A stretch of DNA of 64,000 bases from an uncultured Gammaproteobacteria bacterium (GTDB lineage: Bacteria; Patescibacteriota; Patescibacteriia; Magasanikbacterales; UBA922). The notes below the pieces were generated by a model, which was given only the letters and a program-made list of their open reading frames with translations, did not search any database and was not told the DNA's origin. Below, one piece after another: positions 1,414-62,476 of this stretch. The first letter of the stretch is position 1. Each line of letters begins with the position of its first letter. Made by a program: the position numbers and the translations under genes. The stretch spans positions 4,602 through 68,601 of the forward strand of contig CAZFTR010000001.1 of assembly GCA_964522405.1 (NCBI GenBank), in the 5' to 3' direction.

Positions 1414-4400
1414 ATGAATAGGCTTGAAAAGAAAACAAAGCCATTTTTGCATATCAGTGCATTTCTAACTGCTGCAGCATTTGTGGTTGCCTTTGCTTTT
1501 CTTTTTTCTGATCTTCATGCAGTAACTAAGACTTGGGATTTTGATAGTGCTTCAGATTATACCTTTGATGCAGATTATCTAAAAATAACAGATGGAAAAG
1601 CAGGGTTTGTGACATTTGATCAAACAGACGATGATAATACTCAAACAGGTTTTGGTGGTGGTACACACACAGGTACAGGCTGGAGTGCCAGTAATAACAG
1701 TCTGGGTATAGTTACCGGTACAGTTGCTCTTTATTGGAAATTTGATGAGGTAAGCGGAAATTTAGTCACTGATTCGTCCGGTAGTGGTATGAATGGAGGC
1801 TTGAATCAAAGTGATGGTTTTGATAATAACTGGGTTTTAGGAAAGTTTGCTAATGCTTTTGAATTTGCTAGCTCAACAAGTGAATCATTTGTAGCGCCAA
1901 CCTTTAATACTAAGCCAAATAGCGAACTGTATACCTCTGATATTTTTAGCGTTGCGCTTTGGGTTAGGTTAGATGAGTTGGTTGATAATAATTTTATTGA
2001 TTTATTTCATCGTATCAGCGGTGGAATTTCACGTTTGTACATGAGAGTCCAACCTACTCATAAAATAAGTTGGTCCATATGGGATGGAAGTCCGAATTGG
2101 AGTGGTTTGGTGGGGAATACTACTATTGAAATTGATAATTGGTACTATGTTGTTGGTACATATGATGGGGAAAATTTAAAGCTCTATATTAATGGTGAAT
2201 TAGATGGTTCAATGGCTAATTCCAATGGGATTGAGCAGTTTGATGGTAATAGAATCGCTGGTATAGCAACTATTACAGGAGGTCCTTATGGCGCAACTCA
2301 ACATTTGGATGGAATAGTTGATGATGTTCAATATTATTCTCGCGCCCTAAGCACAGAAGAAATATTGCATAATTACATCAACAGGCCCCCAGCCCAGCAA
2401 GGAATATTTGAATCACGTGTCATGAACAATTACGCAGCATCTTACTGGTGGTCATTAGCATGGAATCCAAAAGCTCCATATGGCAAAGAATTGCCAGATA
2501 ATCCACGTATGGGATTATTGATGCATTTTGATGAGGCAAGCGGAAGTACTGATTTTATCGATTCTTCAAGCGGTGGTAATTTAATATCATGTTCTGGCAC
2601 TTCTTGTCCGCTAACCGGCATAGCAAGTCAGCTTAGTACAGGCGCATATTTTGATGGAGTAGATGACAAGCTGGTTTTTAGTAATAGTCCTACATATAAT
2701 GCTGATGAAATCAAAGATTTTTCATTTAGTACATGGGTAAAGTCTGATTTGAGTCAGAATGGTTTTCATGTTATTGCTTCCGGAGGTTTATCTGATAACT
2801 CTGGCTGGAGTGTCTATACTTACAAAACTGCAAGTGGTGCTGAAAACGTGTATTTTGAAATAGCAAGACCTGGATATACAACTCAATACAAGATACGCGG
2901 TGTCAGTACACAAGATGATAGGTTTGTTTTTATTGGAGGTACCTATGATGCTAGTACTGATGAACTCATTATTTACAAAAATGGTAGTGGAATCGTTGGT
3001 TATGATTCAGCTGGAGCATTAACACAGGCACCTGGAGATGTTTTTGAAATTGGACAAAGAGCACTGCATTCCGGTTTTTCGGATTTTCCCTTCAGAGGTG
3101 TTATAGATGAATTTACGATTTACAATAAAAAGCTTTCAGATCAAGAGATGAGAAATCTATTTGTAGCCCAAAGACAAGGGGCTGCCATGTTGGACGACAA
3201 TGCACCTGATCGAGCTTTAGTGCTTCATATGAATGAAGCAGGAGGTAGTTCGGCGTTTAAAGACAAATCATCTTATAATAATAGCGCCTCTTGTTCTGGT
3301 AATACATGTCCTGTAGCGGGTGTAGAAGGACAAGTTGGCACAGCTTTGAAGTTTGATGGCGTTGATGATTATGTAGAGATAAGTGGTAGTAGTTTAGAAA
3401 TTTCTGATAAATTAACAATGGGTCTCTGGGTAAAACCGGAAACTAGCGGCTCGCATAAACAATTGATAAGTAAGAATCCGGCACCTGGCTCAGTGTCAAG
3501 TTATTATTTGTCATTAACAGCGCTAAAACCATGTGTTTGGCTTGGTCAAAACATGGTGGGTTGGAAATGTTCCATTAGTGCCGTACCTCTTAATGAATGG
3601 TCGTATGTTGCTGCAGTATTTGATGGTAGAAGTTTGAGAATTTATATCAATGGTGTTTTGGACAAAACATATAGTGGTCTAAGTGGTGTTATACCTACAA
3701 ACCCGGGTACATCAGTATGGCTTGGAAATAGACCTGATCTTTCCGGATATATGTATAAAGGTGGAATGGATGAAATAACCATATTCAGCAAAGCACTTTC
3801 CGCAGAAAAAATTTTAAATATATATAATGAACAAAAAATAGGAAAATTGGGATTGGAAAATATTGCCAGCGATCGCTCATTGGAAACAGCACAATACAGT
3901 GCAAGTGGAGCTAACATGACAGATAACGAATTATTATTGCATTTTAATGAAGCTTCATACAGTGGAACAGTAGATGAAGTTGTAGATAAATCAGGAAATG
4001 AGAATCACGGATTAGTGGTTGGAGGAGGCGATACTGTTGCCTATGGAAAATTAAATAGAGCAGCAAGTTTTGATGGAGTTGATGATAGTGTAACCATTGC
4101 TGATAACAATACCCTGGACACCAAGGAATCTGATTTAAGTATCGAAGCATGGATTAAACCGGAAAACGTTTCACAGGCCGGATATATCGTAACAAAACGT
4201 CTAAATGAATCTCCATGGACACAATGGGGCGTGGGAATATTTGATGGTAGTACTAATTATGGTTCAGGAAAGAAATTAGTCTGTACTTTCGGTTTAACCT
4301 CAGGTAGTGGTAGTTATTTTCATGATGTGGTGACAGTTGATGATATATTAGATGGGGATTGGCATCATGTAGTTTGTCGTGTTGATTATGGTAATAACAT

Positions 4401-10826: not shown

Positions 10827-10900
10827 TTTTCTAAAAAAATTATAAACAGTCGCATTTCAAATGTGACTTTTTTGCTTTTAAAAACTATTACTTAAAAATT

Positions 10901-10972
10901 GCTTCGCCGTCCTCGCCTCTCTTGCTAATCTGCTTTCAGCATTAGCAAGGAGTCTGCGGATTGTCTCATCAA
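10901..10972 (+). repeat. copy 1 of a ~70-nt conserved intergenic element (candidate structured-RNA motif). The other copies are at 36644-36712 and 62304-62372
   Basis: Conserved 5' flank gcttcgccgtcctcgcc, a hairpin with stem CTTGCTAAT/ATTAGCAAG and constant loop CTGCTTTCAGC, and conserved 3' flank ctgcggattgtctcatc. Confidence 0.6.
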
Positions 10973-11039
10973 TCTTTAAGTAATACTTTTTAAAAGCAAA
11001 AATAAACTATATCTTGACCCAGCACCATAAGCCAGAGGG

Positions 11040-23935: not shown

Positions 23936-24083
23936 TTTATTATTAGTAAATTTGTTTAACCGTATTTATTATAAAATTCAACTCAGCTCTACAGAAATAA
24001 TTTGATATTCAGTTTAAATTGATCGCTCAACGTTTCATTTTATAATAAATACGGTTAAATTAACTCAAGCTATTAATTCATGT

Positions 24084-27053: not shown

Positions 27054-27149
27054 TAAAAAAGTTTCCCCTCCTTTTTAAGTAGGGGCTATGCCACGTCAGT
27101 CGCGACTGACGTGGTTAGGGGGTGGTTTACTCTACACTTCTAACAAATA

Positions 27150-27176
27150 AAAAACACCCGAATCGGGTGTTTTTTA
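27150..27176 (+). terminator. intrinsic terminator after ileS
   Basis: aaaaaaCACCCGaatCGGGTGtttttt. Confidence 0.8.
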
Positions 27177-27679
27177 AATGGTGGTTTTTATGATCGCGCC
27201 ACACCGGAATTCACAATAGTTTATAAAATCCGGTGTGGCGGCGCGATCAAGTGTCTGTTCACGAGGTTGTTGTCCCTCGTTTACCAGAATCAATCCACCA
27301 CCTCTCCCTTATTTACTACTAACGCTCTTCTGGCGCTTTCGTTTTATTCTCGATAGGGAGCTGTTCTAATCGCGTTGCACGATCAGTCTAACGGGTACAG
27401 CCATGAACGGCTTCACGAACAGGCTGTTCGTATCGATCCAAACTGTTCCTGCATTGCACAGAAAACGACTGGTTTCGCGCTTTTTTGTGTGCGCGTGCTT
27501 CAGTCTCAGAATGATCGGAGTGGGTTCTTGCCGGGGTAGGTGCTACAGTCAATATATCTTGCCTTGGAATGAAGTCGAACCGGGCTTCAATCTTTGGTTT
27601 GATACTCGTGTAGAGCCTTATTCAGTCGTTCGGGTGACTGTCACACGTAGTAGGATCAGATCCTCTACGGTGCTGGTAG

Positions 27680-28141
27680 CTATCGCTTGCCGTACTTTTT
27701 ACGCAGGCTGCGACGCTCGATTTCGCGCTCCAGGAGATCCACCGCTTTTTTGGCTTCCTTGAGCCACCAGTGGCGGATGTCATGGATGTTGCCTTCTTTC
27801 AGGCACTTCCAGAGGAGCCAGAGCCAGTACTGGGTACCGTCTTCTTCGCCGTAGATCAGCGTTTCGAACGGTTCGGGGAGGTTGAAGCCCCCGTCCTTGT
27901 GCTCGGTCATCTCGAATCCCTTGTCGCCATTCTCAACTGCTGCGGCGACCAGGTCGACGAGTCTGTCCTCTCTGCGGTAGAGCTGTCTCTCCTCGCGCAT
28001 GACAGCGAGGAAATCAGTCCAGTCCTCCATGTACGCGGGGACGTAACTGAGGAACTGCTCACTCATCTCACCCACCCAGTGCTCGTGCCTATCAGCAACG
28101 AATTCCGTGTAGGAGAGATCCAAAAACTCTCTTCTATCCAT
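27680..28141 (-). CDS. GC-rich hypothetical protein (153 aa)
   Basis: Protein-like, Trp-rich acidic sequence. SD GGAG lies 7 nt before the ATG, and the 5' leader has a GC hairpin CCCCGGC-acggg-GCCGGGG at 28162-28180. About 57% GC. Confidence 0.55.
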   Translation of the reverse strand: MDRREFLDLSYTEFVADRHEHWVGEMSEQFLSYVPAYMEDWTDFLAVMREERQLYRREDRLVDLVAAAVENGDKGFEMTEHKDGGFNLPEPFETLIYGEEDGTQYWLWLLWKCLKEGNIHDIRHWWLKEAKKAVDLLEREIERRSLRKKYGKR

Positions 28142-28569
28142 CTAACACTCCGAAGCTACTGCCCCGGCCCCGTGCCGGGGAGCTCCGAGATCTCTCTCGG
28201 TTATATCTAGCAAATTTTGCAAAATATAATCGAGAGAGATTTTTGAGTTTTAAATGTCAGCTTTCAAATTATACAAACGAATTATATAATTTGGAACTGT
28301 CCCGAGGCTGAAGCTTCGGGTGAGTTTCTGGCGCTGTTGCGACCTGAGTCGCGAGGCGCAGTTGGTCTTGCTCTTAGAGTGTTGGGGGAGCTGATTGACC
28401 CTACCCCTTCTACTGATTTCGAACTTGTCGCACAGCCGGTTTTCTGGCTCTCTACCTACTCAATTGCCAACTCGTGGCATCCACATCTAGATTTCCCCGA
28501 AAGTTCAGAGAAACTCTCGGTCCACAGGAGCGGAGTTAAATCCGCATCTTCATCGATTAGAAATCGATG

Positions 28570-28872
28570 CTACTTGCTTCCCTCCTGGTGTTTCACCAGA
28601 CGTCGATGGACTTTCTCATCGGCGTAGTCCAGCTCGAGTCGGAGCATCGCGTCCTCGAAGGAGCTCAGCGCTTTCTCGACGCTGTCCGGCGTCGTCGTCT
28701 CGGTGGTGGTGATCGACTGGGAGATCGGATCGGCCCATGCATGGAGGATGCGCGTGGCACGTTTTCCGTACTTGTGGCGCGCGCCTTCGGGCATGTTGCG
28801 CATGACAGAGGTCAGTCGGTTCTCGAGCGCCTCGAGACGGACCTGGAAAAGATATTGCTCGCTTTTCTTCAT
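28570..28872 (-). CDS. GC-rich hypothetical protein (~100 aa; start ATG 28872 chosen by analogy to its paralogous leader, alternative GTG at 28893)
   Basis: A leader paralogous to the 153-aa gene: hairpin CCCTGGt-aaagg-GCCAGGG, then gcagtRgcttYggag, then 7-9 nt, then ATG. Confidence 0.45.
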   Translation of the reverse strand: MKKSEQYLFQVRLEALENRLTSVMRNMPEGARHKYGKRATRILHAWADPISQSITTTETTTPDSVEKALSSFEDAMLRLELDYADEKVHRRLVKHQEGSK

Positions 28873-29111
28873 CTTTCTTTTCTCCAAAGCCACTGCCCTG
28901 GCCCTTTACCAGGGAGCCCAAGAGATTTCCCTTGGTTAAGCGAAAAAAGCAGATAACCGCTTAAATTAGGCAAAAGCCTAAATTTTCGCTAAATCAAGGG
29001 AAATTTCAGTGAATTGTCAATAACGGCTAACAATTAATTATAGCAGGTTTTGACGGTTTTGTCAATGAGTGGTAAAATTAGATAACGACTTCAAAAATTA
29101 ACTAAAAAATT

Positions 29112-30736: not shown

Positions 30737-31315
30737 ATGATTTCATACATCACCGGAAAAATACTTTCAAAAAGTAAAGTCAGTGCTGTTGTTTTGACAA
30801 CTGGCGGAGTTGGCTATGAAATTGGCCTTACAACACTTCAACTTTCTGGAATTTCAGAGGGACAAGAGATAGGTTTTTTTGCATATTTGAAAGTAAGTGA
30901 CAGTAGTCTTGATTTGTATGGATTTGAGTCAGCAGAGGAGAGAGAATTTTTCACATTGCTTCTTTCAGTTTCAGGAGTCGGACCAAAAAGCGCCATGAAT
31001 ATTCTAGGACTTGGCTCAATAGATCAGATCAAAGATGCAATAGCTCGCCAAGATGTAAAATACCTAACAGCAGTACAGGGAATGGGAAAGAAAACAGCAG
31101 AGCGAATGGTAGTAGAATTAAAATCTAAGATTGCCAAACAAGTTACGCAAGTTAGTGAAGAAAAAAATGGCGGTGTGTTAGGTGATGTGGTAGAAGGATT
31201 GGTTTCACTTGGTTATAGTCGGGATGACGCAAGAGAGGTTGCTCAGAAATTGGATAGTACAGGGAAGACAAGTGAAGATCTGCTACGTATCGCCTTGCGG
31301 ATGATGAGTAAATAG
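30737..31315 (+). CDS. ruvA: Holliday junction branch-migration protein RuvA
   Basis: N-terminal MISYITGKL...GVGYEI and a helix-hairpin-helix region (GVGPKSAMNIL) match RuvA. 192 aa. Confidence 0.85.
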   Translation: MISYITGKILSKSKVSAVVLTTGGVGYEIGLTTLQLSGISEGQEIGFFAYLKVSDSSLDLYGFESAEEREFFTLLLSVSGVGPKSAMNILGLGSIDQIKDAIARQDVKYLTAVQGMGKKTAERMVVELKSKIAKQVTQVSEEKNGGVLGDVVEGLVSLGYSRDDAREVAQKLDSTGKTSEDLLRIALRMMSK

Positions 31316-31324
31316 GAACTAAAA

Positions 31325-31541
31325 TAAATAAAAAATCGGTGTTGAGCCGATTTTTTTATTTATGGGTATTTTAAAATAATTGGGTATGTCGCTTCACATC
31401 CCCGAGCCAAAGTACAGAGTGGTTAGTTCAGCTCTCGCCATTAATGCGCGGTACTGGCGAAAGACCTACGCATCTTCAATAAGGACACACTCTCCTCCTG
31501 AATAGGAGCCGAAGCACCTTCCCATAAAGATGTGAAGCGAC
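31325..31541 (-). ncRNA. candidate small RNA (~215 nt) with its own promoter, a 13-bp closing helix and an intrinsic terminator
   Basis: Minus-strand promoter TTGACG(31576-31571)-17nt-TAACAT(31553-31548), TSS near 31541. A 13-bp closing helix pairs GUCGCUUCACAUC with GAUGUGAAGCGAC (31529-31541 / 31388-31400) around a GC-rich ~130-nt core containing a GCUUCGGC hairpin. It ends at terminator tcggctcaacaccga plus a T-run (31336-31350; this hairpin also terminates ruvA). No ORF. Confidence 0.5.
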
Positions 31542-31595
31542 AGGAGTATGTTAGCACTTTGGTTTTTTGGCGTCAAAAAAGTGAGAAAAAGTTTC

Positions 31596-31805
31596 CTATT
31601 TTGTTTTGAGTAAATTATAAATGGCTGCGATTATAAAAACTAACTGGAGAATAATAAAGATTAGATCTCCAATATAAATACTATATATTTCTAAACAGAG
31701 ACCGCCAATTATATAAAGAATATTCTGATTTTTTCTTTTTTTGGTAATTATTCCTATGGAGATAAGCAATAATCCGATTGCTCCGATAATTTTGAAGATG
31801 CTCAT
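31596..31805 (-). CDS. small membrane protein (69 aa)
   Basis: Two hydrophobic helices. 4-nt overlap with the upstream ORF in a minus-strand operon with mutM. Confidence 0.4.
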   Translation of the reverse strand: MSIFKIIGAIGLLLISIGIITKKRKNQNILYIIGGLCLEIYSIYIGDLIFIILQLVFIIAAIYNLLKTK

Positions 31806-32056
31806 AAAGACTTCTTATTTTTTTTATAAATTCTTCTTGTGTTGTAGAGAACAGCCACAAGAAACCAACCCAGTAAGGCAAATAATGAAGCTAGTATGAT
31901 TTGAAATAGGGCTAAACTTAATTTTGCATCTGGAGCATCCATCATAAAGGGTACTTGAAAAATAACCGCAAGCACAAAAAGTGGTAAAAGATATAGAATA
32001 AATTTAAAACTTTTTCTTAAGATTTTTCTTTTGTAGGTTTTTAAGGTTTTAAGCAT
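31802..32056 (-). CDS. small membrane protein (84 aa)
   Basis: Two TM helices. Immediately downstream of mutM on the same strand. Confidence 0.45.
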   Translation of the reverse strand: MLKTLKTYKRKILRKSFKFILYLLPLFVLAVIFQVPFMMDAPDAKLSLALFQIILASLFALLGWFLVAVLYNTRRIYKKNKKSL

Positions 32057-32087
32057 AAATTAAGGATATATTAAAAATATTTAAGAA

Positions 32088-32909
32088 TTATTTTTGACAA
32101 GTTGAGCAATAGAAACTAGATCTACCATTTTGTTTTACTCTCTCTATTGCCCCGGAACAATTTAAACAATTTTGAGAGTCTCTGCCATAGACTTTAAATG
32201 TTTGTTGGAATTCTCCAACGTCACCATTGAGTTGCACATAGTCTCGCAGTGTTGAACCGCCCAGCTTAATGGCCTTTTTGAGAATTTTTTTGATATTTTT
32301 TACTAATAATTTTACCTCTTGCGGCTCTAGAGAGTTTGCCGGTCTTAGAGGTGATATTTTGCTTTCAAACAAGGATTCATTTATATAAATATTACCAACA
32401 CCAACGACGATTTTATTATCCATCATGGCTGTTTTGATGTTGATTGATTTCCCGGAGATTTTTTTGGATAGGTATGCACTGTTAAATTTTTGGCTAAGAG
32501 GTTCAGGTCCTAATTCTCTGAGCATTTTATGCTCTGCAATTTGATTTGCAGGTAGTAGATCAATTAAGCCAAATCTGCGAACATCATTGTAGATTAAGCA
32601 ACTATGGTCATTAAATTTAACTACAAAGTGGTCATGTTTATTTAGTTGGTTAGGTGGATTTTTTAAATAAATTAATTTTCCAGTCATTCCCAGATGGATG
32701 AGTAGGGTTTGGGCATTATCAAAATCAATCAAGATATAACGAGCCCTTCTGCTGATCGCTTTTATCCTTTGTTTTTTCAAAATTTGAAGATTTTTAGGGT
32801 AGGGAAGCCTTAGTCTTTTGCCTGAAATTGAAATCTCGACAATTTTTTGGTTTGGAATATATTTTTTCAGGCCGGCGACAATGGTTTGTACTTCAGGGAG
32901 TTCGGGCAT
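32088..32909 (-). CDS. mutM: formamidopyrimidine-DNA glycosylase
   Basis: N-terminal MPELPEV with catalytic Pro2, helix-two-turn-helix, and a C-terminal zinc finger CLNC...CSTC. Confidence 0.9.
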   Translation of the reverse strand: MPELPEVQTIVAGLKKYIPNQKIVEISISGKRLRLPYPKNLQILKKQRIKAISRRARYILIDFDNAQTLLIHLGMTGKLIYLKNPPNQLNKHDHFVVKFNDHSCLIYNDVRRFGLIDLLPANQIAEHKMLRELGPEPLSQKFNSAYLSKKISGKSINIKTAMMDNKIVVGVGNIYINESLFESKISPLRPANSLEPQEVKLLVKNIKKILKKAIKLGGSTLRDYVQLNGDVGEFQQTFKVYGRDSQNCLNCSGAIERVKQNGRSSFYCSTCQK

Positions 32910-33185
32910 AGGGGGAGGGGGATGGGAGGGTTTAAGTATGTGTGAAATTTGGGAGAGTGCGAATTAGCGAATTATATATATTTTAATAGGTTAATAAAAT
33001 TTGGCCTATTTCACATAACGTTAGGGATATACGAAGTTTTTCTGCAGCGTAGCGGAAGAAAAATTTGGGTGAAGCCCGAGCCGAGGGCTGAACCGTATAT
33101 CCCTTGTTATGTGCCCCGACGACTGAAAGGAGGAGAGCGCAGCGTGGTTCGACCGAAGGGAGAAAGTCCGCCGTAGCCCACCGTC

Positions 33186-33833
33186 CTATTCGCAATTATT
33201 ATGCAACTTCCACATTTCTGGATCGTGTCCTTCAGGGATATTCTCGCATGGATTGCCAGAGGTATACCCTCTCAATTCATTATATTGTTCTACTTGCTGG
33301 GGCGTAAGAATTTCAACCATAGACAAGTGATATTTCAAATGAACAAACCTCAATTGACCATACAACTCAGCACTTTCTTTAACTTTTTCTTGAAGAAATG
33401 CGTTTGTAATTGTTTTAGTTGTGAATGAATCATCAATTTCTTTTTCAATATCTATAATTTTTTCACCAAGATCAATGGCTTCGGAACGCATTTCTTCATA
33501 AAGTGCTTCAATTTGTTTATGTTGTTCATTTGCTAGTTGAAATTCTCCTCCATCATACGCATCCAAAACATGACGAGGGCCAGGGTATCCGTTAAGTTCG
33601 GCAGGTTTTGCCATTCCTCCGAAAGGAGTTCCAGCCCCAGCAAGTAGTCCCTCAATATCATTTTGAGAAAGTGATTTTATACCTCTGGCTTCTTGTCCTG
33701 CATAAGGTGAATGTACTGCACTTTCGTCAGAAGTTTGAGAAGTACTTTTATGCTGTTGCGAGAATATCCCTACAACTACAGCGATAAGAATAACTCCAAT
33801 AATAATTGCGAATTTTTTATTAAACTTTTTCAT
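33186..33833 (-). CDS. secreted protein with an LTXXQ motif (Spy/CpxP-like periplasmic family)
   Basis: Signal peptide MKKFNKKFAIIIGVILIAVVVGIF, plus LTPQQVEQYNELRG and LSQNDIEGLLAG motifs. Confidence 0.5.
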   Translation of the reverse strand: MKKFNKKFAIIIGVILIAVVVGIFSQQHKSTSQTSDESAVHSPYAGQEARGIKSLSQNDIEGLLAGAGTPFGGMAKPAELNGYPGPRHVLDAYDGGEFQLANEQHKQIEALYEEMRSEAIDLGEKIIDIEKEIDDSFTTKTITNAFLQEKVKESAELYGQLRFVHLKYHLSMVEILTPQQVEQYNELRGYTSGNPCENIPEGHDPEMWKLHNNCE

Positions 33834-34086
33834 AATGATTAGCTAAATTATAAATGATTTAAAAGTTTTCCGCTAAAGGCGGGCGGAGGCGAATTGCACA
33901 TAACTAGCATTTATAGGAACAGTTTACCAAATAACAACAGAAATTGGTATGTTATGCGAACTGTCATCTGCAAATTAGCTCACCTCTAAATAATACCACC
34001 CATCCCTCATCCCATCAAATAAAAAACAAGCCCCCTCTCACAGGCCTGTTTTTATTGTTCATTGTTTATTGGTCACTGGTCATTGA

Positions 34087-36582: not shown

Positions 36583-36643
36583 ATATGTTTTTATATTTAT
36601 TTCTTCTTTGGTTATAATTTTAGAGTATATTTTATTAAACTAG

Positions 36644-36712
36644 CTTCGCCGTCCTCGCCTCTCTTGTTGATTTGCTTTCAGCATCAACAAGGTGGCTGTG
36701 GATTGTCTCATC
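36644..36712 (+). repeat. copy 2 of the ~70-nt conserved intergenic element
   Basis: gcttcgccgtcctcgcctct-CTTGTTGAT-ttgctttcagc-ATCAACAAG-gtggctgtggattgtctcatc. The stem carries compensatory changes relative to copy 1. Confidence 0.6.
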
Positions 36713-36805
36713 TACTTTAATAAAATATACTCTAAAATTATAACAACTGATTTCAATAAAAAGGGATCTTATTAGAATCATCCCGCCTATATTGTAGTTT
36801 GTAAA

Positions 36806-49228: not shown

Positions 49229-49330
49229 ACATTTTAATTATAATTGAGCCGCTTCCAGAGTATTGGAGGCGGTTTTTTTATTCACAGTCTAATTCTTGAA
49301 ATTATTATCAACATCATGTAGAATATTTGT

Positions 49331-49533
49331 CTGTTCCTTTTTTGGCAGGTAACAGGGGGGCGTGATGATCATCATCTGAGATAGAGTCTGGAGACCTGAT
49401 TCAGGCGCCGCGTTCGCGCGGCAAAAAGATTTTTTTCCAGACAGCGCGTTCCCGGTTTGGGTAGTTTACCACTCCGGGGGCGTCGCAGGAATAAATTAGA
49501 CAAATCAAAAAACCGGCTTAGTGCCGGTTTTTT
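49331..49533 (+). ncRNA. candidate small RNA (~200 nt) with a consensus promoter and an intrinsic terminator
   Basis: The thrS terminator (49244-49278) is followed by TTGAAA(49296-49301)-17nt-TAGAAT(49319-49324). A GC-rich ~200-nt region follows with hairpins (GGCGCCGCGUUCGCGCGGC; GUCUGGAGACC...), ending at aaaaaACCGGCttagtGCCGGTtttttt (49510-49532). No ORF of 60 aa or more. Confidence 0.5.
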
Positions 49534-49540
49534 GATTGAT

Positions 49541-62259: not shown

Positions 62260-62303
62260 ATGTTGTTTTGACTTTTTGCGTTTGATTTTTTCTCTAAATC
62301 CTC

Positions 62304-62372
62304 CTTCGCCGTCCTCGGTTCTATTGTTGATCTGCTTTCAGCATCAACAATGTGCCTGCGGATTGTCTCATG
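62304..62372 (+). repeat. copy 3 of the ~70-nt conserved intergenic element
   Basis: ttcgccgtcctcggttct-ATTGTTGAT-ctgctttcagc-ATCAACAAT-gtgcctgcggattgtctcatg. The stem is again kept by compensatory changes. TGACTTTTTGC lies upstream, as in copy 1. Confidence 0.6.
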
Positions 62373-62476
62373 ATTTTTTAGAGAAAAAATCAATATAATT
62401 CATAAATTTATTCTACTACACATTTCAGAGATCAAATATAGATCTTTCAGCTATCTCCGAAGATGGATGCCCTGCG

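Follow-up and report, generated by a model that had tools for sequence, protein, structure and literature searches.

Small RNAs that derive from 3′ untranslated regions (UTRs) or share a terminator with an mRNA form a known bacterial class, which includes DapZ and CpxQ. Small palindromic repeats and MITEs likewise form a described group, including ERIC, Correia and the Rickettsia palindromic elements, and the known phase-variation switches comprise segments of 150–300 bp between repeats of 9–25 bp. The attC sites of integrons, finally, consist of an R box, a spacer that stays unpaired, an L stem and a terminal structure that varies, with AAC and GTT as the only conserved bases (PMC2727003). 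Here, a 156-base GC-rich stretch, referred to as the element, is compared with these systems within the 64,000-nucleotide stretch of DNA that was analysed as a whole (the window). The description that suits the element best is that of an orphan piece, bounded by a hairpin, at the end of an integron-like block of horizontally acquired genes and situated in a 3′ UTR. As such, it falls into a known category, that of cassette-end palindromes or that of orphan 3′-UTR RNAs; its context, comprising a mobile cassette, nested and constrained repeats in a coding region and a separate hairpin family, is more unusual than the element itself.

The insert between ruvA and gyrA

RuvA places the organism as Magasanikbacteria-like within Patescibacteria, the candidate phyla radiation (CPR), and the closest RuvA among 5.8 billion proteins is only 64% identical. 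In relatives, pepA is followed by ruvA, which faces gyrA across a gap of 60–500 nt or across unrelated small genes. This genome carries ~2.7 kb between ruvA and gyrA, and these are missing in relatives. Read along the minus strand, the order is the gyrA terminator, a promoter-like site, a Spy/CpxP-like cassette, the genes mutM-p84-p69, the element and a terminator shared with ruvA (Table 1). The insert is bounded by terminator-like sites (34053–34022 and 31356–31330), and no more than 30 nt separate the element from the second of these. The operon mutM-p84-p69 spans 31596–32909 on the minus strand, and the element, which lies 40 nt past the stop codon of p69 on the same strand, falls in its 3′ UTR. 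More generally, the GC-rich non-coding DNA of the window is found mainly in lineage-specific inserts.

The best relatives of MutM are 60–65% identical and are found in alphaproteobacterial neighbourhoods (CcmC, FadB, RuvC), some of them named Rickettsiales. Because these relatives sit in alphaproteobacterial contexts, while RuvA groups with Magasanikbacteria, mutM looks foreign to the lineage and appears to have been acquired horizontally. Neither p84, p69 nor the element was found among the neighbours of close MutM homologues. As a separate observation, parts of a diversity-generating retroelement (bAvd and an RVT_1 reverse transcriptase) lie near pepA/ruvA in one relative (L048:3587–3961).

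Table 1 Features of the ruvA–gyrA insert and copies of the neighbouring cassette, in minus-strand order where they lie in the window.
Feature	Position	Strand	Remarks
gyrA stop codon	34087	-	
Terminator-like hairpin (gyrA side)	34053-34022	-	
Promoter-like site	34018-33990	-	After the 34053-34022 hairpin
p215, 215-aa Spy/CpxP-like gene	33833-33186	-	
GC-rich non-coding stretch	33185-33004	-	Between p215 and mutM
mutM	32088-32909	-	First gene of the operon upstream of the element
p84, 84-aa membrane protein	31802-32056	-	In the operon upstream of the element
p69, 69-aa YgjV-like membrane protein	31596-31805	-	Last operon gene before the element
Sigma-70-like site TTGACG-17-TAACAT with TG upstream (extended -10)	31548-31576	-	9/12 consensus matches in a consensus scan
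Right repeat arm GATGTGAAGCGACA	31529-31542	.	100% complementary to left arm; 5′ strand of P1 in a minus-strand RNA; L″-like box if read as attC
GC-rich interior, P2-P4 and two hairpins at a three-way junction (predicted)	31401-31528	-	Stability equals that of shuffled sequence
Left repeat arm TGTCGCTTCACATC	31387-31400	.	100% complementary to right arm; 3′ strand of P1 in a minus-strand RNA; L′-like box if read as attC
Expected R′ box (GTTRRRY)	31374-31380	-	Reads ATTATTT, 6 nt beyond the repeat; conserved G missing
Bidirectional intrinsic-terminator-like hairpin	31330-31356	.	Scores on both strands
Cassette, copy in the window	33004-33905	-	
Cassette, copy in L145	4929-5831		
Cassette, copy in L146	5-905		Hairpin again at L146:1816-1952

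A neighbouring Spy/CpxP-like cassette with an attC-type hairpin

The unit at 33004–33905 (minus), which holds the Spy/CpxP-like gene p215, recurs at 91–92% DNA identity in two other contigs, L145 and L146, over exactly that span. In four copies, homology begins at G/TTATGTGCAAT (G/TTATGTG) and stops directly after ...CGTATATCCCTAACG/TTA (AACG/TTA), the slash marking the junction. The 3′ end of the cassette is a GC-rich hairpin of 100 nt (33013–33112, minus) reading ACATAAC-A-AGGGATATACG...CGTATATCCCT-AAC-GTTATGT, in which the outer boxes (ACATAAC and GTTATGT) are fully complementary and the inner stem has 11 bp (z −5.6 when folded as single-stranded DNA). The hairpin has the layout of an integron attC site, and in L146 it recurs behind the next ORF.

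In L145, a chromosome of 931 kb from a related organism of the CPR, the cassette adjoins a divergently oriented tyrosine recombinase of 270 aa. At 223 bits, this recombinase exceeds the cutoff of 220 for the 'XerA / integron integrase' model, and it lies under the cutoff of the integron-integrase subfamily (215 vs 265, with the match in two stretches); it is Xer/IntI-like and seems to be without the integron-specific extra domain. Homologues of p215, ranging from 92% down to 65% identity, are found in contigs attributed to very different taxa, and their similarity across taxa is far closer than that of any housekeeping protein of this genome. That some of them (65–92%) are named Thaumarchaeota and Anaerolineae suggests a spread across domains. 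On these comparisons, the Spy/CpxP-like gene together with its 3′ hairpin behaves as an integron-type gene cassette moving between unrelated genomes.

The coding region of p215 (33186–33833) has a further peculiarity, as it contains seven nested perfect inverted repeats of 11–15 bp, each pair with a different sequence. The outermost pair joins codons 5–9 with the last codons and the stop codon, and the DNA between the patches is not complementary. The region folds with z −7.4 in sense and z −9.3 in antisense. Among the 91–92% identical copies, substitutions avoid the arms (5/184 vs 55/464, p = 1e-4), also at third codon positions, and a 65% identical homologue outside a cassette (L148) contains none of the nested repeats. 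One idea is that the repeats would fold single-stranded DNA into a panhandle, by which the recombination sites on either side would be drawn close to each other. Parts of a diversity-generating retroelement also adjoin the 65% identical homologue, in another organism (L148–L156).

The inverted repeat and base composition of the element

The two ends of the element form a perfect inverted repeat of 14 bp, with 128 nt separating the arms. The helix had first been annotated as 13 bp; the perfect repeat is present, but it is one base wider on each side, and on the minus strand two G-U pairs lengthen it from 14 to 16 bp. The GC-rich core of ~130 nt in AT-rich surroundings described in the first-pass annotation corresponds to the 128-bp interior, which is 51% GC next to flanks of 0.21–0.31 (core 0.49–0.52 vs 0.37 for the whole window). 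Since 16% of dinucleotide shuffles of the window contain a perfect 14-mer repeat with a spacer of 30–300 nt, the repeat alone is only modestly significant.

The outermost bases of the repeat, TGTCGC...GCGACA, end in TG/CA. With a length of 156 bp and a GC content unlike that of the host, such termini would fit the remnant of a MITE or IS with TG...CA ends. However, the bases on either side (...TTGGGTA and GGAGTAT...) do not form a target-site duplication (GGGTA and GGAGT), the window and a 5-kb extension (about 69 kb of genome) hold a single copy, and viral, metagenome, phage and plasmid searches gave none, which leaves this origin very unlikely. The geometry also resembles that of known phase-variation switches, in which case a site-specific recombinase would invert the 128-bp segment that the two 14-bp repeats enclose. 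The probability of such an inverton is marginally smaller still: a promoter-like site was not found inside the segment, a downstream gene to control is absent on either strand, three independent assemblies contain a single orientation, and there is no recombinase within 15 kb, the only one of the window being of Xer type and 30 kb away.

It is also unlikely that the element is a coding remnant or pseudogene. All six of its reading frames are broken, and when its 41-aa frame was compared with 1.8 billion proteins, the sole match (P0241) was a repeat artefact, i.e., a spurious ORF of 14 tandem 72-aa repeats. This match was treated as noise because its score sums weak matches of 29%.

Distribution of the element

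Across the region of the element, identity is 100% among three assemblies of this organism, and these three contigs were the only ones found by nhmmer with the element in 44 ruvA loci and in further ruvA, mutM and p215 loci. It is missing at 24 ruvA loci of Magasanikbacteria, as well as in the nearest relatives by RuvA. The first-pass annotation had stated that a helix not conserved in relatives would speak against its proposal of a small RNA, and this is what was found, as all relatives examined lack the element. A covariance model (R1), built from the single sequence of the element and run over 53 sources, did not find a homologue. In viral contigs, a 14-mer from the arm gave single chance matches only and a 25-mer from the core gave none; an exact pattern built from the unpaired segments gave one chance match in the metagenome scan (L138), without further similarity, and blastn against phages and plasmids left the element unmatched. 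Repeats joining the element to a second GC island were also sought, and nothing meaningful was found. Among the collections searched, the element is, as judged by similarity, restricted to this one CPR genome.

An interesting positional analogue, with homology undetected, occurs in a distant relative whose RuvA is 56% identical (L004). There, a GC-rich island of ~300 nt (3640–3940) directly follows the ruvA terminator and contains a near-consensus TTGACA-17-TATACT on the strand opposite ruvA, the same relative strand as the promoter-like site of the element. The island folds at −109 kcal/mol (z −4.8), and it has no match in Rfam. A motif common to both, CCGA(C)AAGCACC, led to homology being considered, but neither MAFFT nor the covariance model supports it.

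Predicted fold and RNA families

For a stretch of 181 nt folded as RNA, the minus strand reaches −60.8 kcal/mol (z −2.4), compared with −47.9 kcal/mol (z −0.9) for the plus strand. For the element itself the values are −59.8 vs −46.4 kcal/mol, with 10 vs 1 G-U pairs, and the advantage of the minus strand can be attributed to its excess of G. Compared with shuffles, the 156-nt unit is stable on both strands (z −3.5 minus, z −2.9 plus), while the 128-nt interior without the repeat is not (z +0.7 minus, z +1.0 plus; 500 shuffles). The excess stability of the unit therefore comes entirely from the terminal repeat, which is the only exceptional structural feature of the element, and the internal structured core that had been proposed for it is not supported on either strand.

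The predicted minus-strand fold is a rod of four helices (P1 with 16 bp, P2 with 4, P3 with 7 and P4 with 8) whose far end is a three-way junction bearing two hairpins. P1–P4, small loops, an 11-nt one-sided bulge and the three-way junction are common to the MFE, centroid and MEA folds. The central bubble of 6S type, which had been suggested as a feature to look for, is absent, in that the predicted fold has the junction and no two-sided bubble. At gathering score, Rfam recovered only a tRNA from the whole window, with which ARAGORN agrees (tRNA-Arg), and 6S was not found. When the threshold was relaxed to E ≤ 10 for 31250–31650, only terminator-like or hairpin noise appeared, and 6S, SRP, Y RNA, ribozymes and riboswitches were not found. 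The earlier assignment to 6S or a similar class of regulatory RNAs is not supported, as matches to RF00013 or to other families are nil even at this threshold. A divergent 6S RNA or another housekeeping RNA of the CPR (SRP RNA, Y RNA) would have a suitable length and a long closing helix. Such an identity is nevertheless extremely improbable, with 6S, SRP, Y RNA and other families unmatched at E ≤ 10 and a three-way junction where the two-sided bubble is missing, and it is contradicted by the absence of the element from relatives and its location inside a lineage-specific insert.

Transcription of the element

The minus strand contains the promoter-like site that had been noted at the right distance (TTGACG-17-TAACAT), although sites of this class occur in the window at background density (12 found vs 9.9 expected from shuffles). 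Its -10 ends 5 nt ahead of the helix, and the predicted transcript would therefore begin at or beside the first helix base (~31542). The hairpin at 31330–31356, common to ruvA on the plus strand and to the mutM-p84-p69 operon with the element on the minus strand, begins ~30 nt past the helix. It scores on both strands, in agreement with the earlier view of a terminator that is shared with ruvA and would close the minus-strand transcript. A scan between the stop codon of p69 and the element found no terminator; hence it is very likely that a minus-strand transcript crosses the element as the 3′ UTR of the operon, whether its own promoter is active or not. The signals for a discrete transcript, i.e., its own promoter and terminator, are well-placed consensus matches of a kind that occurs at background density.

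The same anatomy would also fit an orphan small RNA of ~215 nt on the minus strand, reaching from the closing helix to the shared terminator and either trans-acting or protein-binding. It would be transcribed from a promoter of its own where p69 ends, be released from the 3′ UTR, or both. The extended -10 site sets the start within 1–2 nt of the first helix base, a terminator follows 30 nt past the helix, the predicted fold is more stable for the minus than for the plus strand, and the distant relative described above has an analogous GC-rich island with a promoter-like site on the same strand and a marked fold. On the other hand, the element has no Rfam match, the searches gave no homologues, and the island of the distant relative is not detectably related. 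The interior equals shuffles and the strand difference follows the composition (G>C), promoter-like matches are at background density, and it is unusual for an evolved RNA helix to have all 14 bp perfectly paired, with neither wobble nor mismatch. The combination of a perfect Watson-Crick stem and an unexceptional interior fits a DNA-level or recent palindrome better than an old RNA gene. What stands of the original proposal of a minus-strand small RNA is its anatomy, comprising the promoter-like site, the closing helix and the shared terminator; its functional reading, with neither Rfam match nor conservation, is not supported. A lineage-specific orphan small RNA is less likely than not, the only positive evidence for it being consensus matches.

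Other palindromes and GC-rich islands in the window

The element is one of several palindromic features of the window. A family of hairpin repeats occurs in three copies (10869–11002, 36611–36744 and 62282–62393), which share a conserved core of ~70 nt (CTTCGCCGTCCTCG...TGCTTTCAGCA...GGATTGTCTCAT) on top of an AT-rich perfect stem of 16–29 bp whose sequence varies by copy. The central hairpin shows compensatory changes between copies, the three cores have the same orientation, and one of them falls within the gyrA 5′ UTR, at a place that is empty in relatives. The family has no counterpart in Rfam, and copies were not found in other loci or in viral contigs. Upstream of IleRS, a near-perfect palindrome of 105 bp with perfect arms of 23 bp (23955–24059) ends in GTTTAAC...GTTAAAT, which match the attC R″/R′ consensus on both strands; an unpaired spacer is absent. 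Between IleRS and pepA lies a GC-rich insert of 2 kb (27054–29111, about 0.48) with non-coding islands, no Rfam match and two ORFs of 153 aa and 107 aa without a Pfam match. It contains an imperfect 27-nt inverted repeat (28150–28176 / 28293–28319) that ends in ATCTAAC...GTTAGAT-like boxes. A further GC-rich non-coding island (49229–49540), with an 80-nt maximum of 0.60 GC near 49404, is situated between ThrRS and a 370-aa ORF and adjoins a terminator-like palindrome (49503–49537).

Altogether, the window has at least seven distinct perfect repeat pairs of at least 14 bp with spacers of 30–400 nt, against an average of 0.22 14-mer pairs per dinucleotide shuffle. With such a large excess of long perfect repeats, a palindrome without function, arisen for example by template switching in a foreign non-coding spacer, is plausible as an explanation of the element. 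Several of the repeats stand at places without an obvious role, and the element is unique, with only its repeat unusual. Against this, the arms of the p215 repeats are constrained where this can be tested, and the other repeats of the window therefore do not look like neutral by-products either; moreover, it would still have to be explained why the interior is GC-rich and why the element stands precisely at the insert's edge. On balance, a by-product palindrome is unlikely.

Resemblance of the element to an attC site

Read on its top strand, the element has the order TGCTAAC, 7 nt, 14-bp stem, 128 nt, stem, 6 nt. The R″-like box TGCTAAC (31556–31550, minus) has its AAC at 31552–31550, 7 nt ahead of the stem. 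This AAC is not independent evidence for an attC site, because CTAAC/AAC is also contained within the -10-like TAACAT. The box is complementary to the putative cassette start (TTATGTG) for 4 nt at most. The GTT of R′ was not found at its expected site, the next GTT being ~70 nt off. In an attC stem, L″/L′ carries 2–3 extrahelical bases and an unpaired central spacer; the stem of the element is perfect, without extrahelical bases, and its spacers are 7 and 6 nt. Loss of the extrahelical bases lowers strand choice of attC sites, and recombination is not abolished (PMC2727003). As an attC site, the element would span ~183 nt, above the usual range.

The element lies on the same strand as the hairpin at 33112–33013 and about 1.5 kb from it, as would be expected of a second site in an array. 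A strict attC descriptor recovers that neighbouring hairpin (33013–33112) and not the element, and nhmmer found no sequence similarity between the two. A putative cassette with three genes would also be unusual, and an integron integrase was not found in the window, where the only recombinase (219–1217) is of Xer type. A resemblance of the 3′ flank of the element to the cassette-junction motif was discarded as being at chance level, since 15% of 16-mers starting with TTA score equally.

The element is accordingly not filed as an attC site; a decayed cassette-end hairpin is nonetheless its most likely origin, with a probability of roughly 0.4. It would then be a lineage-specific, single-copy spacer, bounded by a palindrome, at the distal edge of the horizontally acquired block between ruvA and gyrA, and would represent a degenerate cassette-end hairpin of the attC kind, composed of an AAC core, a 7-nt spacer, a 14-bp stem, a 128-nt top and a 6-nt spacer. 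Having lost the GTT crossover triplet, it would recombine no longer and may now be no more than a passenger in the 3′ UTR of the mRNA made from mutM-p84-p69, where its 16-bp stem just before the terminator could at best help to protect the 3′ end. Direct observations cover the repeat and where it lies, the lack of the element in relatives and the genuine cassette next to it; we infer the attC origin, the transcription through the element and any stabilising effect. An extension of this origin, in which the dead cassette-end hairpin has turned into a small RNA gene, is improbable; the R″ core CTAAC would now serve in the -10 TAACAT, and transcription would start at the old L stem.

Significance and relation to known systems

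As a single-genome feature without conservation, the element alone matters little. Its value is that of a flag for an integron-like insertion at the ruvA/gyrA junction of a CPR genome, whose cassette circulates among unrelated genomes at >90% DNA identity. If the element is the last, decayed attC site of an array, it helps to mark the limits of the insertion, and would show how foreign genes that lack a promoter, among them one for DNA repair of alphaproteobacterial type, become established in a reduced genome and are expressed there. Were it instead an expressed orphan small RNA, it would join a very short list of candidate regulatory RNAs in the CPR. Should a dead attC site have become a small RNA gene, such a site would yield a discrete structured RNA with a host terminator, and small RNA genes could be born from integron debris.

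Compared with 6S RNA (RF00013), the element is in the size range (about 150–200 nt) and has a long helix formed from its two ends, but it differs in having no match to the model, no central bubble and no conservation within its own candidate phylum. As in 3′-UTR-derived small RNAs such as DapZ and CpxQ, it lies between the last stop codon and the terminator of an operon, with a promoter-like site at the end of the coding sequence, and its RNA would share the terminator of the mRNA; in contrast to these, it has no conserved seed, homologues or internal structure above chance. ERIC, Correia and the Rickettsia palindromic elements are comparable in their 100–160 bp, terminal inverted repeats, intergenic location near gene ends and co-transcription, whereas the element is a single copy without target duplication and family members of it were not found. 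Integron attC sites differ from it in their R′ GTT and extrahelical bases, both of which the element lacks, and its perfect 14-bp stem, its ~183 nt, its dissimilarity to the adjacent attC and the three genes that the putative cassette would hold are further differences. Yet, like an attC site, it is an imperfect palindrome directly behind the final ORF of a block of acquired genes, and shares its strand with a neighbouring canonical attC-type hairpin. Its AAC core is followed by an unpaired spacer, then by a stem with a variable, branched top and then by another spacer, and like a CALIN it stands without an integrase nearby (PMC9024848, PMC9668308, PMC2727003).
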